From the sequence record OQ589852.1: a stretch of DNA of 45,270 nt; one strand, given 5' to 3'. The position numbers and the translations under genes are program-made. The notes under the pieces are model-generated. The model was not told where the DNA came from. It ran no database searches and saw nothing but the letters and a program-made list of their open reading frames with translations. The stretch comes from Escherichia phage Ioannina. Positions 1,971 through 45,270 of this stretch are shown here, piece after piece (the stretch's first letter is position 1; each line of letters opens with the position of its first letter).

Positions 1971-3491
1971 ATGTCTGTAAACGTGGACAACCAACACCCA
2001 CTCTACGCGCGCATTGCGCCTGAGTGGAAGATGATCCGTGACTGCGTTGCAGGTGAAAGGGCCGTTAAAGCGTGCGGCCCGCTTTACTTGCCGTTTCCGT
2101 CCAGTGGCGACAACACCGACCCAAAAGCGAAGGCCCGCTACAATGCATACAAGCAACGTGCGGTCTTCCTGAACGCCACCGCTCGCACGCTTAACGCGTT
2201 GCTGGGTATCGCCTTTGCGAAGCCAGTCACCATGAAGCTGTCCGGTAAAATCGCCGAGCTTATCGACGACGTAGACGGCAGCGGAATGCCATTGCCGCAG
2301 TTACTGCGTGGAGCGATGTCGGAAGTGCTGCAATCCGGGCGAGCCGGTTTTATGGTGGACTATGACCGCCAGGCGCATTTTGACGAACTGGGTAACGTCG
2401 TGCCGCAAACCGCCGCAGAGATGGCGATGCACCGTCCGCTCATTAAGCTGTACACGGCAGAGCAGATCATCAACTGGCGACAGACCCACGGGCAGGACAC
2501 CTTGATCGTGCTGAAAGAGTGCGACGAAATCAGCACCGAAGATACCGACGATTTCGCAAACCACGAAGTTACGATATGGACCGAGCTACGAATGGTCAAC
2601 GGCAAAGCACACGCCCGCCGCTGGTTTTTCAACGCAGACACGTCCGAAGTGCAGATGGATTTACCGCGTGGCTTTACCAAAACCGACCTGGTGCCGCTGG
2701 TAGATTCTGCCGGTCGCGCACTGGATAGCCTGCCGTTTTGCTGGTGTGGTGCAGTCGATAACAACGCCACCCCGGACGCCGCGCCGCTGGCTGATATTGC
2801 GTCCATCAACATTAAGCACTACAACGCCGAAGCGGACGTTGCTGAGATTGCGCACATCGTAGGCCAGCCGACGCTAATCACTACCGGTCTGACCCAATCA
2901 TGGGCCGATAAAAACCTGAAGGGTGGTATCGCGCTCGGTGCGACGAAGGGTGTTATCTTGGGCCAGAACATGGACGCCAAACTGCTTCAGGCCGAAGAAC
3001 GCAACCTGTCCGTGGCATTGTGTGAACGCCGTGAGAAACAGATGGCTAAACTCGGTGCGGCGCTGGTGGAGAAGGGGAGCGCACCTAAAACGGCAACAGA
3101 AGCGGCCTACGACGCGCAGACTGATAACAGTATCTTGTCGCTGATTGCCGGTAACGTTGAGAAGGCATTCAACAAGGCGCTTCAGATCGTGCAGTTGTTC
3201 ACTGGTGACACCGCCGAGCAGACTGTAACCCTGAACAAGTTCTACACCGAAATCACGGTGGATGCGCAGTTGATGACCGCAATGATGAGCGGTGTACAGA
3301 CTGGGACGGTCCGTCTTTCTGATTTCATCAAATGGATGATGGCACAGGGTGTAATCGACGATTCGCAGACTGTAGACCAGGTGGAAGACGACTTGCGGAA
3401 TCAGAATCCGTTGCCGCAAATGTCACCGGATGCGGTAAACTTGGACGATGACGAATCGGACAAGGTAGATGACGATGCCGAGGAAAATTAA
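1971..3491 (+). CDS. portal protein
   Basis: 506 aa directly after TerL; acidic C-terminal tail (DDDESDKVDDDAEEN); size and position typical. Confidence 0.75.
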   Translation: MSVNVDNQHPLYARIAPEWKMIRDCVAGERAVKACGPLYLPFPSSGDNTDPKAKARYNAYKQRAVFLNATARTLNALLGIAFAKPVTMKLSGKIAELIDDVDGSGMPLPQLLRGAMSEVLQSGRAGFMVDYDRQAHFDELGNVVPQTAAEMAMHRPLIKLYTAEQIINWRQTHGQDTLIVLKECDEISTEDTDDFANHEVTIWTELRMVNGKAHARRWFFNADTSEVQMDLPRGFTKTDLVPLVDSAGRALDSLPFCWCGAVDNNATPDAAPLADIASINIKHYNAEADVAEIAHIVGQPTLITTGLTQSWADKNLKGGIALGATKGVILGQNMDAKLLQAEERNLSVALCERREKQMAKLGAALVEKGSAPKTATEAAYDAQTDNSILSLIAGNVEKAFNKALQIVQLFTGDTAEQTVTLNKFYTEITVDAQLMTAMMSGVQTGTVRLSDFIKWMMAQGVIDDSQTVDQVEDDLRNQNPLPQMSPDAVNLDDDESDKVDDDAEEN

Positions 3492-4578
3492 CCAACGACT
3501 GGCGGATCGCATGATTCGCCGTCACATCTTCACCCAGCGCCTGAGCAATGAGCAGGCGCGTAAAGTGCTGGCAATGTGGCAAAAATTCCGTCCTACGTTA
3601 CTGGGTAAGCTGACCGAATTACTTGAGGGCAAGAAGTCAATGAGCAATAAGGCGCTTACCACTCTGCTAACCCAAATCGACAAAACGGTTAAGACCGAAC
3701 TGCGCGACGAGTTTAAAGTGCTGGCTGAAGGTCTGGCGGAGTTTGCCGATACCGAGGCTGAATATCTGACCGACACATTAACGGCAGCACTGCAACCTGC
3801 GCTTTCAGTCCCTGCCGTTGAGGTGGTTGGTGTAGTGACCGGTGCGCAGATTGCAGCGACGGCTATGAAAAATCCATTCCAGGGCAACACGCTTATGCAA
3901 TGGCCTGATTCTCTGTCAGAATGGACCAGAACGCAGATCAGCAATCAGGTGCGCGCCGGATTTATCCAGGGCAAACCTACTATGCAAATTATTGCGGACG
4001 TCAAGCGCGCGTTGGGCGGTCGTAGCGCGCAGGCCATTTCAAGCGTGGTCAAGTCCGCAGTCAACCACTATGCGGCGACCGCACGCGAATTAATGGTAAA
4101 AGCAAATGATGATATTCTCGACGGTCGCCAGTGGCTTTCTACACTGGATACTCACACCTCAACGCTCTGTCAGTTACGCGATCGCCTGTTTTATCCGGTT
4201 GATGTTACCCCCGAAACAAAAGGGAAACGGGACGGGAAAGTGGTGGCTGGATCACAGTATGGCGCTGGTCCTGGCAAGCTACATTATTGTTGCCGTTCTA
4301 CCGAGACGTGGAAAGTCAAGGGTATGGAAGATTGGCCCAGTGGTAAGCGTCCGGCACTGAAGGCCGAAGCGGGTAAACTGCTAAGTGAGCAGGTCAGTGC
4401 TAAGACGGACTTCTTCTCCTGGGTACAGCGCCAGCCGCGGCATATCCTTGAGGAATTATACGGAGTGCAGCGCGCGGACCAGATCCTGCGAGGCGTGAAA
4501 GTTCCGACCATGTTTAACGACGCGGGCGAGCTTATGACGATTCAACAACCAAAAAATAAGGGGTTATGGCGTGATTAA
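3469..4578 (+). CDS. minor head / head morphogenesis protein (Mu gpF / SPP1 gp7-like)
   Basis: 369 aa following and overlapping the portal gene; start codon uncertain (several in-frame Met). Confidence 0.55.
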   Translation: MTMPRKINQRLADRMIRRHIFTQRLSNEQARKVLAMWQKFRPTLLGKLTELLEGKKSMSNKALTTLLTQIDKTVKTELRDEFKVLAEGLAEFADTEAEYLTDTLTAALQPALSVPAVEVVGVVTGAQIAATAMKNPFQGNTLMQWPDSLSEWTRTQISNQVRAGFIQGKPTMQIIADVKRALGGRSAQAISSVVKSAVNHYAATARELMVKANDDILDGRQWLSTLDTHTSTLCQLRDRLFYPVDVTPETKGKRDGKVVAGSQYGAGPGKLHYCCRSTETWKVKGMEDWPSGKRPALKAEAGKLLSEQVSAKTDFFSWVQRQPRHILEELYGVQRADQILRGVKVPTMFNDAGELMTIQQPKNKGLWRD

Positions 4579-4879
4579 ATACGCAGCAGCCGGATTGATT
4601 CTCGGCCTTGTAATTGGGTTCTGGCAAGGTGACAACTATCGTGCTGGCGTGGTGGCGGAGGCGGCGCAGGAAGCGCAAGCCAAAGCCCAACGGCAGCAAA
4701 CTAAGGTAATCCATGAGTCGGTACAGAAAGAGCAGGCCCGCGAAGTGGAGTTCCGCACAGTTGAGAAAGAGGTGATTAAATATGTCACGCGTCCTGATCG
4801 CGATAATTGTAAGTTTGATGCTGACCGCGTGCGGATCAAGCAACGTGCCGTTGATGCCGCTAACGGAATCAGCAATTAA
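4571..4879 (+). CDS. Rz-like i-spanin
   Basis: N-terminal TM helix (AAAGLILGLVIGFW), Q/A/E-rich coiled coil; an out-of-frame lipoprotein ORF overlaps its 3' half, the classic Rz/Rz1 arrangement. Confidence 0.6.
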   Translation: MIKYAAAGLILGLVIGFWQGDNYRAGVVAEAAQEAQAKAQRQQTKVIHESVQKEQAREVEFRTVEKEVIKYVTRPDRDNCKFDADRVRIKQRAVDAANGISN

Positions 4880-5012
4880 GCCGCCGTGTAAGTTTGAGTC
4901 GCCATCGGAAGATCCGGACGAAGATTTAGCGATTGATGTGCGAAATATGAAATGCGGGGCGGAGTTAAGGGCACAAGTGCTGGATTTGCAGAAATTAATT
5001 AAGGGGCCGTAA
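4782..5012 (+). CDS. Rz1-like o-spanin lipoprotein
   Basis: Signal peptide with lipobox LTAC, Pro-rich mature part with Cys; begins inside Rz in another frame and runs past its stop. Confidence 0.65.
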   Translation: MSRVLIAIIVSLMLTACGSSNVPLMPLTESAIKPPCKFESPSEDPDEDLAIDVRNMKCGAELRAQVLDLQKLIKGP

Positions 5013-5937: not shown

Positions 5938-6641
5938 TGAAACTGACTAAAGCAGAATATGACGCGTTGCCTGAAGGCATGAAAGCATTGTTTGTTGCCG
6001 ATGGTGACGGGTACAAGGCGACGTTTATGACCGCCGAAGAAGTACAGGCCGAGATCAAAGGTCTGAAGGATAACAACGCGAAGCTGGTAGGCGAGAAAAA
6101 GGCAGAAGCCGAACGCCGTGCCGAAGCGGAGCGACTCGCTAAAGAGAAAGAGGAAGCCGCAGCGCGCAAGAACGGCGACCTTGAAGCGATCGATAAGTCC
6201 TGGCAGGACAAGTTTACTAAATACGATGCGGATACGAAGGGCAAAATCGAAGCCTACCGCAAACAGATTCACGATCTTACCATCGGCAGCACTGCCAAAG
6301 ACCTGGCATCAAAGCTGTTCGGTAAGAACGCTGGCATTATGCAACGCCACGTCATGGACCGCCTTGCGCTGGAAGAAGGCGAAGACGGCAGTCTGAAAGT
6401 GCGCGTATTGCAGGACGGCAAACCATCCGCACTGACTATGGAAGAACTGGAGAAAGAGTTCCGTAGTAACGAAGATTTCGCGTCCGTCCTGGCGGGTACG
6501 CCTGCCGGTGGTGCGCCGAGCAAACCGACCCATGTAATCGACGATCCGAAATCTAAGATTCAGATGGGTCATAGCTTCGGCATCACTGACTTGACCAAAC
6601 AGGCCAGCGATATTATCGCCAAACTGGGCGACGACGAGTAA
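5938..6641 (+). CDS. scaffolding protein
   Basis: About 234 aa from MKLTKAEYDAL; charged coiled-coil (AEAERRAEAERLAKEKEEAAARK); directly upstream of major capsid gene. The track's longer ORF from 5841 is probably an over-extension. Confidence 0.65.
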
Positions 6642-25808: not shown

Positions 25809-26279
25809 TTATTTAAGTGCGCGAGTTACCAGTGTTTTTTCCATATTGCGGAAGTCTTCCTCGGTCATCTGGATTTTCGACCCGTCTTCACCGTACAGCG
25901 TCACCAGCGGTTGAGCTTTCGCTAAAACTCCCTTCGGCAGCGACCACGCATCAACCTGTTTCTTCAGGCTTTCCAACTGCGCTGCCGTTACGTCGATCTG
26001 GATCTCGTCATGCACAGTTGTGTAAGACTCACCCAGTAGCGCGGAATATGCCACTAAATCCACAATGTTATCTTCCTGGTGTTTACGGGTCTGGCGTACC
26101 AGCTTCAGGCAAATCATAAATACCCAGGCTTCTTGCTCGGTAAGGTCACGACCGGTTAGTGCGTTGAATACGGCAGCGATCTGTTTAGCGCTGCGTTCTT
26201 CTTTGCTGTCATATCCATTTTCTTTCCCGCGCTGTTCCATAGTGGTGGCGGCGTTTTTGCAGTATTCGAATGCTTTCAT
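25809..26279 (-). CDS. putative MazG-like nucleotide pyrophosphohydrolase
   Basis: 156 aa, all-alpha character; segment LKLVRQTRKHQEDNIVDLVAYSALLGE resembles the MazG/HisE family. Weak call. Confidence 0.3.
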   Translation of the reverse strand: MKAFEYCKNAATTMEQRGKENGYDSKEERSAKQIAAVFNALTGRDLTEQEAWVFMICLKLVRQTRKHQEDNIVDLVAYSALLGESYTTVHDEIQIDVTAAQLESLKKQVDAWSLPKGVLAKAQPLVTLYGEDGSKIQMTEEDFRNMEKTLVTRALK

Positions 26280-43285: not shown

Positions 43286-43693
43286 ATGTTAAAAAGTATT
43301 CTTGATCATAATGCGGACGCGCTTGACGCGTTGGCTAAAACGGACGACGCTGGCGCGCGTCGCATCATTGCAAACACCATCAGCCATGCTGGGGTGTTTG
43401 GTGCAAGCCTTCCGGGGCCTAAGCCGGATGTGAAGGTGTCAAGCGCCACAGTAACGGTAACACCAGAGGAAGTTACAATCGGCACCAAGTCTAAGGCTAC
43501 GGTGGCGGTGCAACCGGCAGGGGCGACCGATAAATCCGGTGTGTGGATTAGTGGGTCGCCAACCATCGCCACCGTTGACGCTTCGGGTAATATCGACGGC
43601 AAAACTCCCGGTTCTGTCGATATTATTTGGGTGGCTAAGGATGGAAGCGGGGTGTCGGGCCGAAAAACGGTAACTGTGGCAAACGCCGAGTAA
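43286..43693 (+). CDS. bacterial Ig-like (Big_2-type) domain protein
   Basis: C-terminal 80 aa (ATVAVQPAGATDKSGVWISGSPTIATVDASGNIDGKTPGSVDIIWVAKDGSGVSGRKTVTV) is a typical Big_2 fold; no signal peptide. Confidence 0.55.
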   Translation: MLKSILDHNADALDALAKTDDAGARRIIANTISHAGVFGASLPGPKPDVKVSSATVTVTPEEVTIGTKSKATVAVQPAGATDKSGVWISGSPTIATVDASGNIDGKTPGSVDIIWVAKDGSGVSGRKTVTVANAE

Positions 43694-43697
43694 AGAG

Positions 43698-43728
43698 CAA
43701 GCCCGCAACTATGGCGGGCTTTTTATTG
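43698..43728 (+). terminator. rho-independent terminator
   Basis: AGCCCGC-AACTATG-GCGGGCT followed by TTTTTATT. Confidence 0.65.
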
Positions 43729-43780
43729 CTTGACTTGCAACCAATTAATAGCTCATACTTCTGTCGCCGTGGTATATTGA
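43728..43780 (+). promoter_or_regulatory. promoter region (TTGACT plus TGCAACCAAT; downstream TATATT)
   Basis: TTGACTTGCAACCAATTAATAGCTCATACT and a TATATT hexamer upstream of the ATG at 43812; exact -10 unresolved. Confidence 0.4.
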
Positions 43781-43811
43781 TCGCGGTCAAACTGAATCAG
43801 GAAAATATACG

Positions 43812-44954
43812 ATGCACCCTCAAACCAAAATTACAGACGAGCAGTTGATCGCCGAAATCCAGGCGGGAACGACCGCGAAAGATATTGCTAAGAAATACGG
43901 GATTGCACTGCGCAATGTTTATATGCGCAAAGCACGCTTATCTAAAAAGGGGATTGGGCACGGTAACGATGCCGTAATTCGTAAGCGGGTTGCCGATGGC
44001 TTCGGCGTGAAACGTGTATCCGCCCTGGTACGAGGCAATGGCGAAGAGGTCATGTCGTGGGTTATCACCGAGCAGGACAAAGAGCGCCAGCTTGAGGCGA
44101 TGCGTGCAGTGCTGGACGGCATGAACAGCGAAATCACACCGGCAGCACCCGTAAGCGCGCCACCAGTCCCGATCCAGGCGCTGGACCTGCTAAACCTGTA
44201 CACCGTGTCCGACTTCCACCTGGGGATGCTGGCATGGGGAGAAGAGACTGGCGAGGATTGGGATATGGCTATTGCCGAAGACCTGTTCTACCGCTGGTTT
44301 GTCGAAGCCTTTGCCCGCGCCCCGGATGCCGGAACAGGCGTGATTAACATCCTCGGTGATATGGCCCACTTTGACAGCCTGGATGCCGTTACCCCCGCAA
44401 GTGGTCACGTCCTGGATGCCGATACCCGCTATCAGAAGCTGGTGCGCTACATGATTCGCATGGTCCGCCGCGTTGTCGAACTGGCATTGCAGAAACACCA
44501 CAAGGTTAAACTGCTAATCGTGCAGGGCAACCATGACGAAAGCGGTATGATCTGGCTGGCGGAGATGTTCGCTACGCTGTACGAGAACGAGCCGCGCGTT
44601 GAGGTGGATACGTCGCCGGATGTCTATAAGATGGTCCAGCACGGTAAGACTACGCTGTTCTTCCATCACGGGCACAAGGCTAAATTCGACGCTATCGAGC
44701 CGGTCATGATTTCGAAATTTCGTGAGGCGTTCGGATCCAGCCAGTACAGCTATGCTCACGTAGGACACCTGCACCACCAGAAGATTATCGAATCGCGCAA
44801 CATGATTGTTGAACAGCACCGCACGCTTGCCGCGAAGGATGCCTACGCCAGCCGAGGCGGTTGGATGAGCGGACGCAGTGCAAACGTGATAACCTATAGC
44901 GCGAACTACGGTGAAGTAGCACGCTTAACCATTAGCCCGGAGATGTTGAAATGA
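43812..44954 (+). CDS. HTH domain fused to calcineurin-like metallophosphoesterase
   Basis: N-terminal HTH (TAKDIAKKYGIALRNVYMRKARL); metallophosphatase motifs GDMAHFD, GNHDE and HHGH. Confidence 0.55.
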   Translation: MHPQTKITDEQLIAEIQAGTTAKDIAKKYGIALRNVYMRKARLSKKGIGHGNDAVIRKRVADGFGVKRVSALVRGNGEEVMSWVITEQDKERQLEAMRAVLDGMNSEITPAAPVSAPPVPIQALDLLNLYTVSDFHLGMLAWGEETGEDWDMAIAEDLFYRWFVEAFARAPDAGTGVINILGDMAHFDSLDAVTPASGHVLDADTRYQKLVRYMIRMVRRVVELALQKHHKVKLLIVQGNHDESGMIWLAEMFATLYENEPRVEVDTSPDVYKMVQHGKTTLFFHHGHKAKFDAIEPVMISKFREAFGSSQYSYAHVGHLHHQKIIESRNMIVEQHRTLAAKDAYASRGGWMSGRSANVITYSANYGEVARLTISPEMLK

Positions 44955-45163
44955 TCAGACAAGTATTCATGAGCACGCAGGCCGCACGCCTGGCTGAATT
45001 ACGCAAACAACTGGAAGGACTGCGCCGATTCGAGCGCACAGCGGCAGCGGTAGGCATGAGTATGTCGGAACGGATCGAGATACTCACTCAAATTCGCCAC
45101 ACAGAGGGCGCAATCGAGGCAGTTAAGGCTATGCTAACCCGATACTACGGTCGACCCGTTTAA
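44951..45163 (+). CDS. hypothetical small protein
   Basis: 70 aa, helical; followed by terminator. Confidence 0.35.
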   Translation: MIRQVFMSTQAARLAELRKQLEGLRRFERTAAAVGMSMSERIEILTQIRHTEGAIEAVKAMLTRYYGRPV

Positions 45164-45171
45164 TCTCACCA

Positions 45172-45200
45172 CAGGCCCGCTTACGCGGGCTTTTTTGTGT
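45172..45200 (+). terminator. rho-independent terminator
   Basis: GCCCGC-TTAC-GCGGGC followed by TTTTTTGTG. Confidence 0.65.
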
Positions 45201-45270
45201 CTGCAATTCTCCCTGATATAATCGTGACAGGTGGTTGGGCCACCTCCTATGTTGCCGATGGTCGGCGCAT

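Follow-up and report, generated by a model that had tools for sequence, protein, structure and literature searches.

A helix-turn-helix metallophosphoesterase of Escherichia phage Ioannina as a candidate DNA nuclease of phage DNA metabolism

Introduction

What does a phosphoesterase with a DNA-binding domain do beside the genes that package a phage genome? The question is raised by Escherichia phage Ioannina (OQ589852.1). Its sequence, the window analysed here, is a complete Dhillonvirus genome of 45,270 bp. At the far right end lies a gene in which an original prediction had recognised an N-terminal helix-turn-helix (HTH) fused to a calcineurin-like metallophosphoesterase (MPE). Profile, fold and alignment all bear out that architecture. 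The proposed function, a nuclease or a protein phosphatase in DNA processing tied to the small terminase subunit (TerS), fared less evenly. Here, we describe the gene, its family and its surroundings, and we weigh what the enzyme may do. With a probability of about one half, we favour a stand-alone, HTH-tethered DNA nuclease that would serve phage DNA metabolism.

An intact metallophosphoesterase behind a helix-turn-helix

The gene (43812..44954, + strand, stop codon included) starts with an ATG preceded by AGGA 9 nt upstream and encodes a protein of 380 aa. It is genuine and under strong purifying selection. Compared with its counterpart in phage Bas84, it shows 84.5% DNA identity and 96.3% protein identity; 147 of the codon differences are synonymous and 14 non-synonymous. 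This synonymous excess, together with the full-length match to the family phrog_704 described below, indicates that the motif pattern of the protein did not arise by chance. The 380-aa homologue in Dhillonvirus EE09, CDS39, is represented by three MS peptides in lysates; since endolysin is also found in the sample, the latter is not virion-specific (PMC10673088).

The protein can be divided into three parts. A tri-helical HTH of the resolvase, LuxR or sigma-70 region 4 type occupies residues 9–45 (43836..43946, + strand). It is followed by a β-hairpin and a long helix (residues 64–107; 44001..44132, + strand) carrying the family-specific motif 'KGxSxL..G....WVK'; a search for relatives of this segment returned none that was recognisable. 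The catalytic MPE domain (residues 126–380; 44187..44951, + strand) contains motifs I–V and a conserved family-specific loop. All five di-metal ligand motifs (DxH, GDxxD/H, GNHD/E, H and GHxH) are present, as DFH (134–136), GDMAHFD (182–188), GNHDE (239–243), HHGH (285–288) and GHLH (318–321). The original prediction had listed GDxxHxD, GNHDE and HHGH, which occur exactly as described, and had omitted the first and the last of the five. The family-specific loop lies between motifs II and III and comprises T194, P-x-S-G-H, L201, D202 and R206 (T-P-x-S-G-H-x-L-D-A-D-x-R). Across an alignment of 46 family sequences with 32–47% identity to the query, residues D134, H136, G182, D183, D188, T194, N240, H241, H286, G318 and H321 are invariant.

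A large family with public annotation

Residues 5–380 match positions 2–390 of the 390-position profile of phrog_704 ('DNA repair exonuclease') with an E-value of 3.2e-161. An exhaustive HMMER search recovered 4666 cluster representatives (50% identity) at E <= 1e-3 and 1128 at E <= 1e-30, nearly all of them 370–420 aa long. By tblastn, a relative is encoded in 2041 of the 50,697 phage records. The hosts of these phages include Escherichia, Klebsiella, Salmonella, Vibrio, Campylobacter, Flavobacterium and Rhodobacter. Family members are known from T1, HK578, Jerseyvirus and Kagunavirus. The Ioannina protein is 96% identical to a protein of Dhillonvirus PNS1 and 95.8% identical to the product of an HK578 gene annotated 'DNA repair exonuclease', and it shares 45% identity with its homologue in phage T1 (MK213796, 40822–41955), which likewise falls into phrog_704 (E 7e-155). 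According to the 46-sequence alignment, the order of HTH, hairpin/helix and MPE is common to the whole family.

GenBank labels for family members range from 'DNA repair exonuclease', 'calcineurin-like phosphoesterase' and 'metallophosphoesterase' to 'winged helix-turn-helix domain-containing protein' and 'nuclease'. The homologue of Pantoea phage Nifs112 is labelled 'HTH and metallophosphatase domains containing protein', and the pairing of the two domains is thus not the unusual one that it had been taken for. The architecture is already part of public annotation and the Ioannina gene is an ordinary member of a known family. The name of phrog_704 itself derives from remote similarity, and the searched literature contained no biochemical, genetic or other functional study of the family.

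The curated Pfam sequence models do not capture a family that has diverged this far. The Ioannina protein scores 22.6 bits against Metallophos (cut-off 27) and 17.4 bits against Metallophos_2 (cut-off 21.5), both below the gathering score, and these models reach E <= 0.01 in only 9 and 4 of 46 relatives, respectively. As the gathering thresholds are missed, the precomputed Pfam column is blank for the family. For the HTH, Sigma70_r4_2 matches 10 of 46 members (best E 1.5e-9) and GerE 5 of 46. The only NCBIfam hit, to PdeM at E 0.067, is meaningless. PADLOC returned no match for the MPE protein, nor did any known anti-defence family, and we rejected a defence or anti-defence identity on the negative PADLOC result.

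Predicted structure and remote homology

An AlphaFold2 model based on the 46-sequence alignment reached a mean pLDDT of 91.6 and a pTM of 0.78, with a single weak segment, the linker at residues 45–62. It places the HTH, a flexible linker, the hairpin/helix and the MPE core in this order. The MPE domain is predicted to adopt the four-layer α/β sandwich of calcineurin-like metallophosphoesterases. The tri-helical HTH is recognised by both fold and profile.

When the model was compared with nucleases of the Mre11/SbcD type and with Ser/Thr phosphatases, the nuclease-type neighbours came out on top. The best structural matches were the PolD DP1 exonuclease, Mre11 and SbcD, with Ser/Thr phosphatases far lower. 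Foldseek ranked Mre11 of T. maritima first (E 2.4e-8), followed by DP1. At the profile level, hhalign aligned the family with T4 gp47 over 183 columns with the motifs in register (78% probability, E 1.8e-5), a point in favour of a nuclease. The comparison with E. coli SbcD was weak (2.6% probability, GNHD motif only), and among PDB sequences the family profile found T. maritima Mre11 at an E-value of about 1. A direct PDB sequence search gave a spurious match of residues 67–100 to designed armadillo-repeat proteins and no other matches.

There are clear differences between the Ioannina protein and these enzymes. Its identity to Mre11, SbcD and T4 gp47 is only 13–17%. The Mre11-type capping domain that lies C-terminal to the core is absent, as the protein stops at the end of the MPE core, and it carries an N-terminal HTH instead. 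Whereas Mre11, SbcD and gp47 partner with the ATPases Rad50, SbcC and gp46, usually encoded by an adjacent gene, this partner has no counterpart here. The complete annotation of Dhillonvirus Bas84 contains no Rad50/SbcC-like gene, and none was seen next to the homologues of T1, Jerseyvirus, Kagunavirus and the other sampled lineages. DP1, the small subunit of archaeal PolD, is a 3'-5' proofreading exonuclease. At 12% identity it is a fold neighbour only, and both its OB-fold and its partner DP2 are missing from the Ioannina system.

A predicted insulated transcription unit at the circular junction

The first base of the window is the start codon of TerS (1–573), which belongs to phrog_3064, shows weak GP3_package and Sf6-type matches and is of the P22/Sf6 type. 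It is followed by the large terminase subunit TerL (573–1958; Terminase_6N and Terminase_6C) and the portal gene (1971–3491). The terminase is complete and of the headful type, and TerL carries its own RNaseH-like nuclease domain in Terminase_6C. The HTH-MPE gene therefore meets the packaging genes only over the circular junction. In records opened elsewhere, the order is endolysin, small ORF(s), MPE gene, a 70-aa ORF, TerS and TerL. The placement 'just upstream of the packaging genes' thus holds on the circular map, with the 70-aa ORF, a terminator and a separate promoter in between. The last 2.3 kb of the window are 99.5% identical to Dhillonvirus LM40P1 and 82–84% identical to many other Dhillonviruses of E. 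coli, Shigella and Salmonella.

On the upstream side, the MPE cassette is insulated by an intrinsic terminator at the end of the lysis/Ig-like gene cluster (43699..43721, + strand). This element is a perfect inverted repeat, AAGCCCGC/GCGGGCTT, that forms an 8-bp stem with 6 G-C pairs and a 7-nt loop, with TTTTATTG behind it; phage NHEP3 has an equivalent hairpin. Conservation points to an extended -10 element of the sigma-70 type, TGGTATATT (43770..43778, + strand), as the predicted promoter of the cassette. Bas84 has exactly the same core, GTGGTATATTG, and NHEP3 a near-identical one (ATGATATATTG), in an intergenic region that has otherwise diverged. An alternative promoter from a consensus scan, TTGACT-18-CATACT (43730–43759), is not conserved.

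Downstream, the 70-aa ORF (ORF70, phrog_20931; 44951..45163, + strand) shares an ATGA overlap with the MPE gene, to which it is predicted to be translationally coupled. An intrinsic terminator (45173..45192, + strand), with an 8-bp stem and a 4-nt loop followed by TTTTTTGT, closes the unit; at this position, Bas84 and NHEP3 carry a hairpin with another stem sequence and the same T-run. The TerS/TerL operon would start from its own extended -10 promoter, TGATATAAT (45214..45222, + strand), as read from the sequence, in place of which Bas84 and NHEP3 carry TGTTATAAT. Terminator, promoter, MPE gene, ORF70 and terminator are thus predicted to form one insulated transcription unit.

ORF70 is found only in Dhillonvirus, where it is 84–86% identical to its versions in Bas84 and NHEP3, and it is unrelated to the ORFs that Jerseyvirus and Kagunavirus carry 3' of their MPE genes. 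It is not Ksap1, the small Dhillonvirus protein that triggers KpAvs2, which maps elsewhere, at 24.8–26 kb of Bas84. Although 50 of 64 environmental loci have an ATGA-overlapping downstream ORF, these ORFs come from unrelated families (DUF3310, Zn-ribbon, an 81-84-aa family and phrog_20931), and the idea that they encode a conserved small partner or inhibitor was rejected.

Genomic neighbourhoods in other phages

In phage T1, the gene order is Dam, three small genes, MPE, endonuclease, holin and endolysin. Throughout the Drexlerviridae, the gene lies directly 5' of the holin-endolysin-spanin cluster in 508 of 522 genomes, and PNK or dNMP kinase is often encoded 3' of the exonuclease gene (PMC13164509). 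The cassette has the opposite orientation in Jerseyvirus and Kagunavirus (75% identity), where it lies between genes of the tail module. A J8-65-like podovirus and Pantoea phage Nifs112 encode the MPE protein after a 5'-3' exonuclease and endonuclease VII and before PNK, a phosphatase, dNMP kinase and ligase, and in Vibrio, Rhodobacter and Sulfitobacter phages the homologue is found beside SSB or lysis genes. Some of the phages with a homologue are temperate, as they possess an integrase.

We also surveyed 20 dereplicated environmental viral loci, found using a 6-sequence alignment, with 114 genes within three positions of the homologue. NinG/Rap proteins were represented by 11 matches to phrog_5034, 3 to phrog_171 and 7 to Pfam NinG. 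Further neighbours were NinB/Orf (8), nucleotide kinases (5), DUF3310 (5) and HNH proteins (3). Among the Pfam families (all 23) and PHROG families (top 25 of 108) listed for these 20 loci, none is a terminase family.

Adjacency to terminase was likewise absent from the T1-like, Jersey, Kaguna, J8-65-like, Pantoea, Vibrio, Rhodobacter, Sulfitobacter and 20 environmental lineages. It is confined to Dhillonvirus, where a terminator and a promoter intervene. The conserved adjacency to, and co-transcription with, TerS/TerL expected of a terminase-associated accessory nuclease, such as the HNH proteins of HK97-like cos phages, is therefore not seen. Since the family occupies DNA-metabolism or lysis neighbourhoods elsewhere, the position beside the packaging genes in this genome is incidental.

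Discussion

The reading that we give even odds is a DNA nuclease in which the MPE domain would act as a di-metal, probably Mn2+-dependent, DNA phosphodiesterase resembling Mre11, SbcD and gp47 as well as PolD DP1. An activity on DNA is suggested by four features together: the di-metal site is intact, the fold neighbours are of the nuclease type, the DNA-binding HTH is obligatory and the genes nearby belong to DNA metabolism. The flexibly linked N-terminal HTH would tether the enzyme to duplex DNA, and the enzyme would work without an ATPase of the Rad50/SbcC type. It would be expressed from its own host-RNA-polymerase promoter, as part of the insulated two-gene unit, and would act in phage DNA metabolism and not in packaging. 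The most likely role would be host DNA breakdown for nucleotide salvage, trimming of DNA ends and hairpins in recombination-dependent replication, or both. The analysis itself establishes the gene with its domains and intact catalytic motifs, its fold neighbours, the absence of an SMC partner and a context that varies and lies away from packaging; for the nuclease reading, we infer that DNA is the substrate, which metal is used, when the enzyme is expressed and what it does for the phage.

A nuclease is further supported by the fusion of the HTH to the enzyme across the family and by the genes next to it in other phages, which encode a 5'-3' exonuclease, endonuclease VII, PNK, dNMP kinase, ligase and SSB and, at the environmental loci, NinG/Rap, NinB/Orf and nucleotide kinases. 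The persistence of the gene in Drexlerviridae, often with PNK or dNMP kinase 3' of it, also speaks for this reading. The weak sequence links to bona fide nucleases (SbcD, 2.6%; T5 A1 family, 37–49%) argue against it. With regard to the possible roles, the T4 record describes gp46/47 as required for both recombination and host-DNA degradation. The Ioannina genome also encodes a phrog_69 exonuclease and a gp2.5-like annealing protein, so resection may not need the MPE enzyme. This exonuclease (476 aa) was considered as a second MPE paralogue and rejected, as it is not an MPE. Wholesale destruction of host DNA is less expected given that some carriers are temperate. That phage DNA would somehow have to be spared also counts against a role in host-DNA breakdown.

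We consider it unlikely that the protein is instead a small-molecule phosphodiesterase acting on cyclic or linear oligonucleotides, Ap4A or 2',3'-cNMP, which might blunt the signalling-based immunity of the host or adjust nucleotide pools, with the HTH serving regulation or localisation only. Rv0805, GpdQ, YfcE, MJ0936 and Ap4A hydrolase lie within 2–4 Z units of the top matches and the Foldseek top 10 includes Rv0805 and GpdQ. Fold scores alone set nuclease MPEs apart from phosphodiesterase MPEs by only 2–3 Z units. Nucleotide kinases are among the neighbours, and the insulated, moron-like cassette shifts its genome position between phages, as accessory and counter-defence genes often do. However, the closest fold neighbours are nucleases, and a conserved DNA-binding HTH on every family member would be hard to explain. 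Moreover, whole families such as the Drexlerviridae retain the gene as a persistent core component, whereas most anti-defence genes are patchy, and neither PADLOC nor the known anti-defence families gave a match.

A protein phosphatase, the second option of the original prediction, appears improbable. Such an enzyme would be a functional counterpart of lambda NinI/lambda protein phosphatase and dephosphorylate proteins of the host or the phage, with the sigma-region-4-like HTH perhaps placing it on DNA or at RNA polymerase. In lambda, the MPE phosphatase NinI is encoded in the NinB-NinG region. Like the Ioannina protein, it is a phage-encoded MPE, and in environmental relatives the gene for the Ioannina-type protein occupies a nin-like site, with NinB and NinG homologues on either side; the resemblance of the HTH to sigma-70 region 4 in 10 of 46 members could also fit a target at RNA polymerase. 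Nonetheless, Ser/Thr phosphatases score much lower structurally, and the PPP subfamily fold with GDxVDRG and GNHE motifs (lambda-PP/NinI type) was not found in the protein. Of the two activities proposed, it is hence the nuclease that the fold neighbours favour.

We regard it as highly improbable that the protein is mainly a DNA-binding regulator with an accessory or degenerate MPE domain, acting for example on its own gene or, in the way reported for T5 A1, on the RNA polymerase of the host. Its HTH is of a transcription-factor type, and in Bas84 the -10 element of the MPE gene itself lies between the two arms of a 9-bp inverted repeat, GGACCGTGG...CCACGGTCC. Yet this repeat is imperfect in both the window and NHEP3. 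As a repeated HTH operator, the conserved motif CCGTGGTATATTG was rejected because it is not enriched in the genome, where 11 matches with up to three mismatches compare with 10.9 expected by chance. In addition, all catalytic residues are invariant in very divergent members, which indicates that the enzyme function is under selection.

Largely refuted by the comparative context, and the least probable of all, is an accessory packaging nuclease whose HTH would recognise the pac region and whose MPE domain would cut or trim concatemers for the terminase: it would fit a gene that adjoins TerS on the circular Dhillonvirus map and a protein that occurs along with terminase in cell-free lysates (PMC10673088), but that sample lacks virion specificity, the terminator, ORF70 and a separate promoter stand between the two genes, TerL has a nuclease domain of its own and the homologues of all other sampled lineages lie away from terminase.

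A tentative link to host-chromosome degradation

Within the nuclease reading, we tentatively suggest that phrog_704 enzymes may be the host-chromosome-degrading enzymes of T1-type infections, that is, Rad50-independent, HTH-guided, Mre11-like DNases. Besides the Drexlerviridae, in which it is core, this family occurs in Dhillonvirus, Jerseyvirus, Kagunavirus and numerous environmental siphoviruses. The variable HTH could provide targeting, through discrimination of host from phage DNA or through association with promoters or RNA polymerase. A role of this type is supported by the presence of a phrog_704 member in T1. We take T1 'gene 2.5' to be the locus that controls host-DNA degradation, with a map position between the genes for replication and those for lysis. 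Both T1 and TLS break down the genome of their host and build its nucleotides into their own DNA again; the gene product responsible is stated to be unidentified (PMC11447400).

The suggestion draws on an analogy with A1 of phage T5, a pre-early 'DNA transfer protein'. A1 is a putative metallophosphatase that is reported as both necessary and sufficient for host DNA degradation, is likened by its authors to DSB-repair nucleases and a polymerase proofreading subunit and is reported to interact with RNA polymerase (bioRxiv 10.64898/2026.04.02.716235). Like the Ioannina protein, it is a phage MPE without an SMC partner, its authors describe the same structural neighbours for it, and relatives of A1 carry N-terminal HTH Pfam types as seen in the Ioannina family (HTH_23, HTH_38, HTH_7, HTH_28 and GerE). 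However, A1 is 556 aa long, belongs to another PHROG (phrog_1745) and lays out motifs I and II differently. It has further roles in second-step DNA transfer and is said to be largely confined to Demerecviridae. In an hhalign comparison with the A1 family, the N-terminal region reached 37% probability and the MPE domain 49%, both weak.

The single gene of phage Ioannina adds nothing new by itself, as the databases already contain annotated copies that are nearly identical and GenBank notes the pairing of HTH and MPE. The family, however, is large and widespread. If the proposed role of phrog_704 in T1-type infections is true, it would settle a question stated as open in the T1/TLS literature and would make the recent result for T5 A1 valid for far more phages. 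It could then also help to account for the transduction frequencies and the nucleotide economy of phages in wide therapeutic use.

Genomic context of the HTH-MPE gene

The ATGA coupling at the 3' end of the HTH-MPE gene is conserved, while the identity of the coupled partner varies. In Ioannina, the partner is an ORF at 44951-45163 of the window, a member of the Dhillonvirus family phrog_20931. In 50 of the 64 environmental loci (L100-L179), the ORF downstream of the HTH-MPE gene likewise begins with a 4-nt ATGA overlap, and an ATGA-overlapping downstream ORF is also present across several cultured phage lineages (loci L090, L091, L094 and L097). The downstream ORFs are mutually unrelated, comprising DUF3310, Zn-ribbon proteins, an 81-84-aa 'ATIGG...VYTD' family and phrog_20931 of the Dhillonviruses.

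At the 5' end, a perfect 9-bp inverted repeat, GGACCGTGG N8 CCACGGTCC, flanks the MPE gene's -10 promoter element in the related Dhillonvirus Bas84 (L001, approximately 6525-6550). This repeat is degenerate in both the window (43764-43787) and NHEP3, and the motif does not recur in the genome beyond chance. The Bas84 repeat could be an operator or a coincidence.

A gene between the endolysin gene and the MPE cassette (43286-43693) encodes a Big_2 Ig-like domain (Pfam E 6e-11) as a free-standing protein of 135 aa. In its C-terminal part, this protein is similar to the Ig domains that occur in major tail proteins and decoration proteins. Two small unrelated ORFs fill the corresponding slot in Bas84, which marks it as a variable locus. 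CDS40 of the Dhillonvirus EE09, which at 137 aa is of about the same size as the Big_2 protein, has been detected by MS (PMC10673088). The lysis cassette is split, since the genes for the i-spanin and for an Rz-like o-spanin embedded in it (approximately 4571-5012, compare 4548-4989 in Bas84) are annotated within the head-morphogenesis module, whereas the holin-holin-endolysin genes are located about 38 kb away, at 42.2-43.3 kb.

A further gene, on the minus strand at 25809-26279, is called 'polynucleotide kinase' in Bas84. The sole matches of its product are DUF6378 and phrog_9871, and a kinase or phosphatase label looks unsupported on this basis. The gene is probably the 'phosphatase' that flanks Ksap1, the small KpAvs2-triggering protein, in SECphi18.

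Comparison with other phages

In Jerseyvirus (L090 3400-5420) and Kagunavirus (L091 3600-5720), the MPE gene belongs to a moron-like cassette that runs on the opposite strand and interrupts the tail module, with the major tail gene on one side and the tail chaperone/tape-measure genes on the other. Besides a promoter of its own (TTGCAT-N17-TATTAT) and a bidirectional terminator, this cassette includes a small gene of the signal-peptide or 'superinfection immunity' kind. The taxonomy lines of four siphovirus/podovirus records (PV052268, OR594180, OK570184 and MN850625) appear at odds with their gene content, for example a Rountreeviridae label on a Jersey-like Salmonella phage and an Autographiviridae label on a Kagunavirus-like phage; these lineage strings were left out as evidence.

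The putative metallophosphatase A1 of phage T5 (L180 1706-3376) itself gave no Pfam matches. Its relatives (43-48% identity; alignment A8) show N-terminal HTH matches (HTH_23 in 5 of 24, HTH_38 in 4, HTH_7 in 3 and GerE in 2), and the A1 family therefore has the HTH+MPE layout in common with phrog_704. Both families also carry the 'NHDxxxSxWL' extension of motif III.

Among 20 dereplicated representatives (L100-L179), the environmental HTH-MPE relatives reside in a setting that resembles the lambda nin region, with NinB/Orf, NinG/Rap, nucleotide kinases and DUF3310. Lambda encodes its own metallophosphoesterase, NinI (lambda-PP), in this very region. The shared placement may mean that one MPE type has taken over the site of another.
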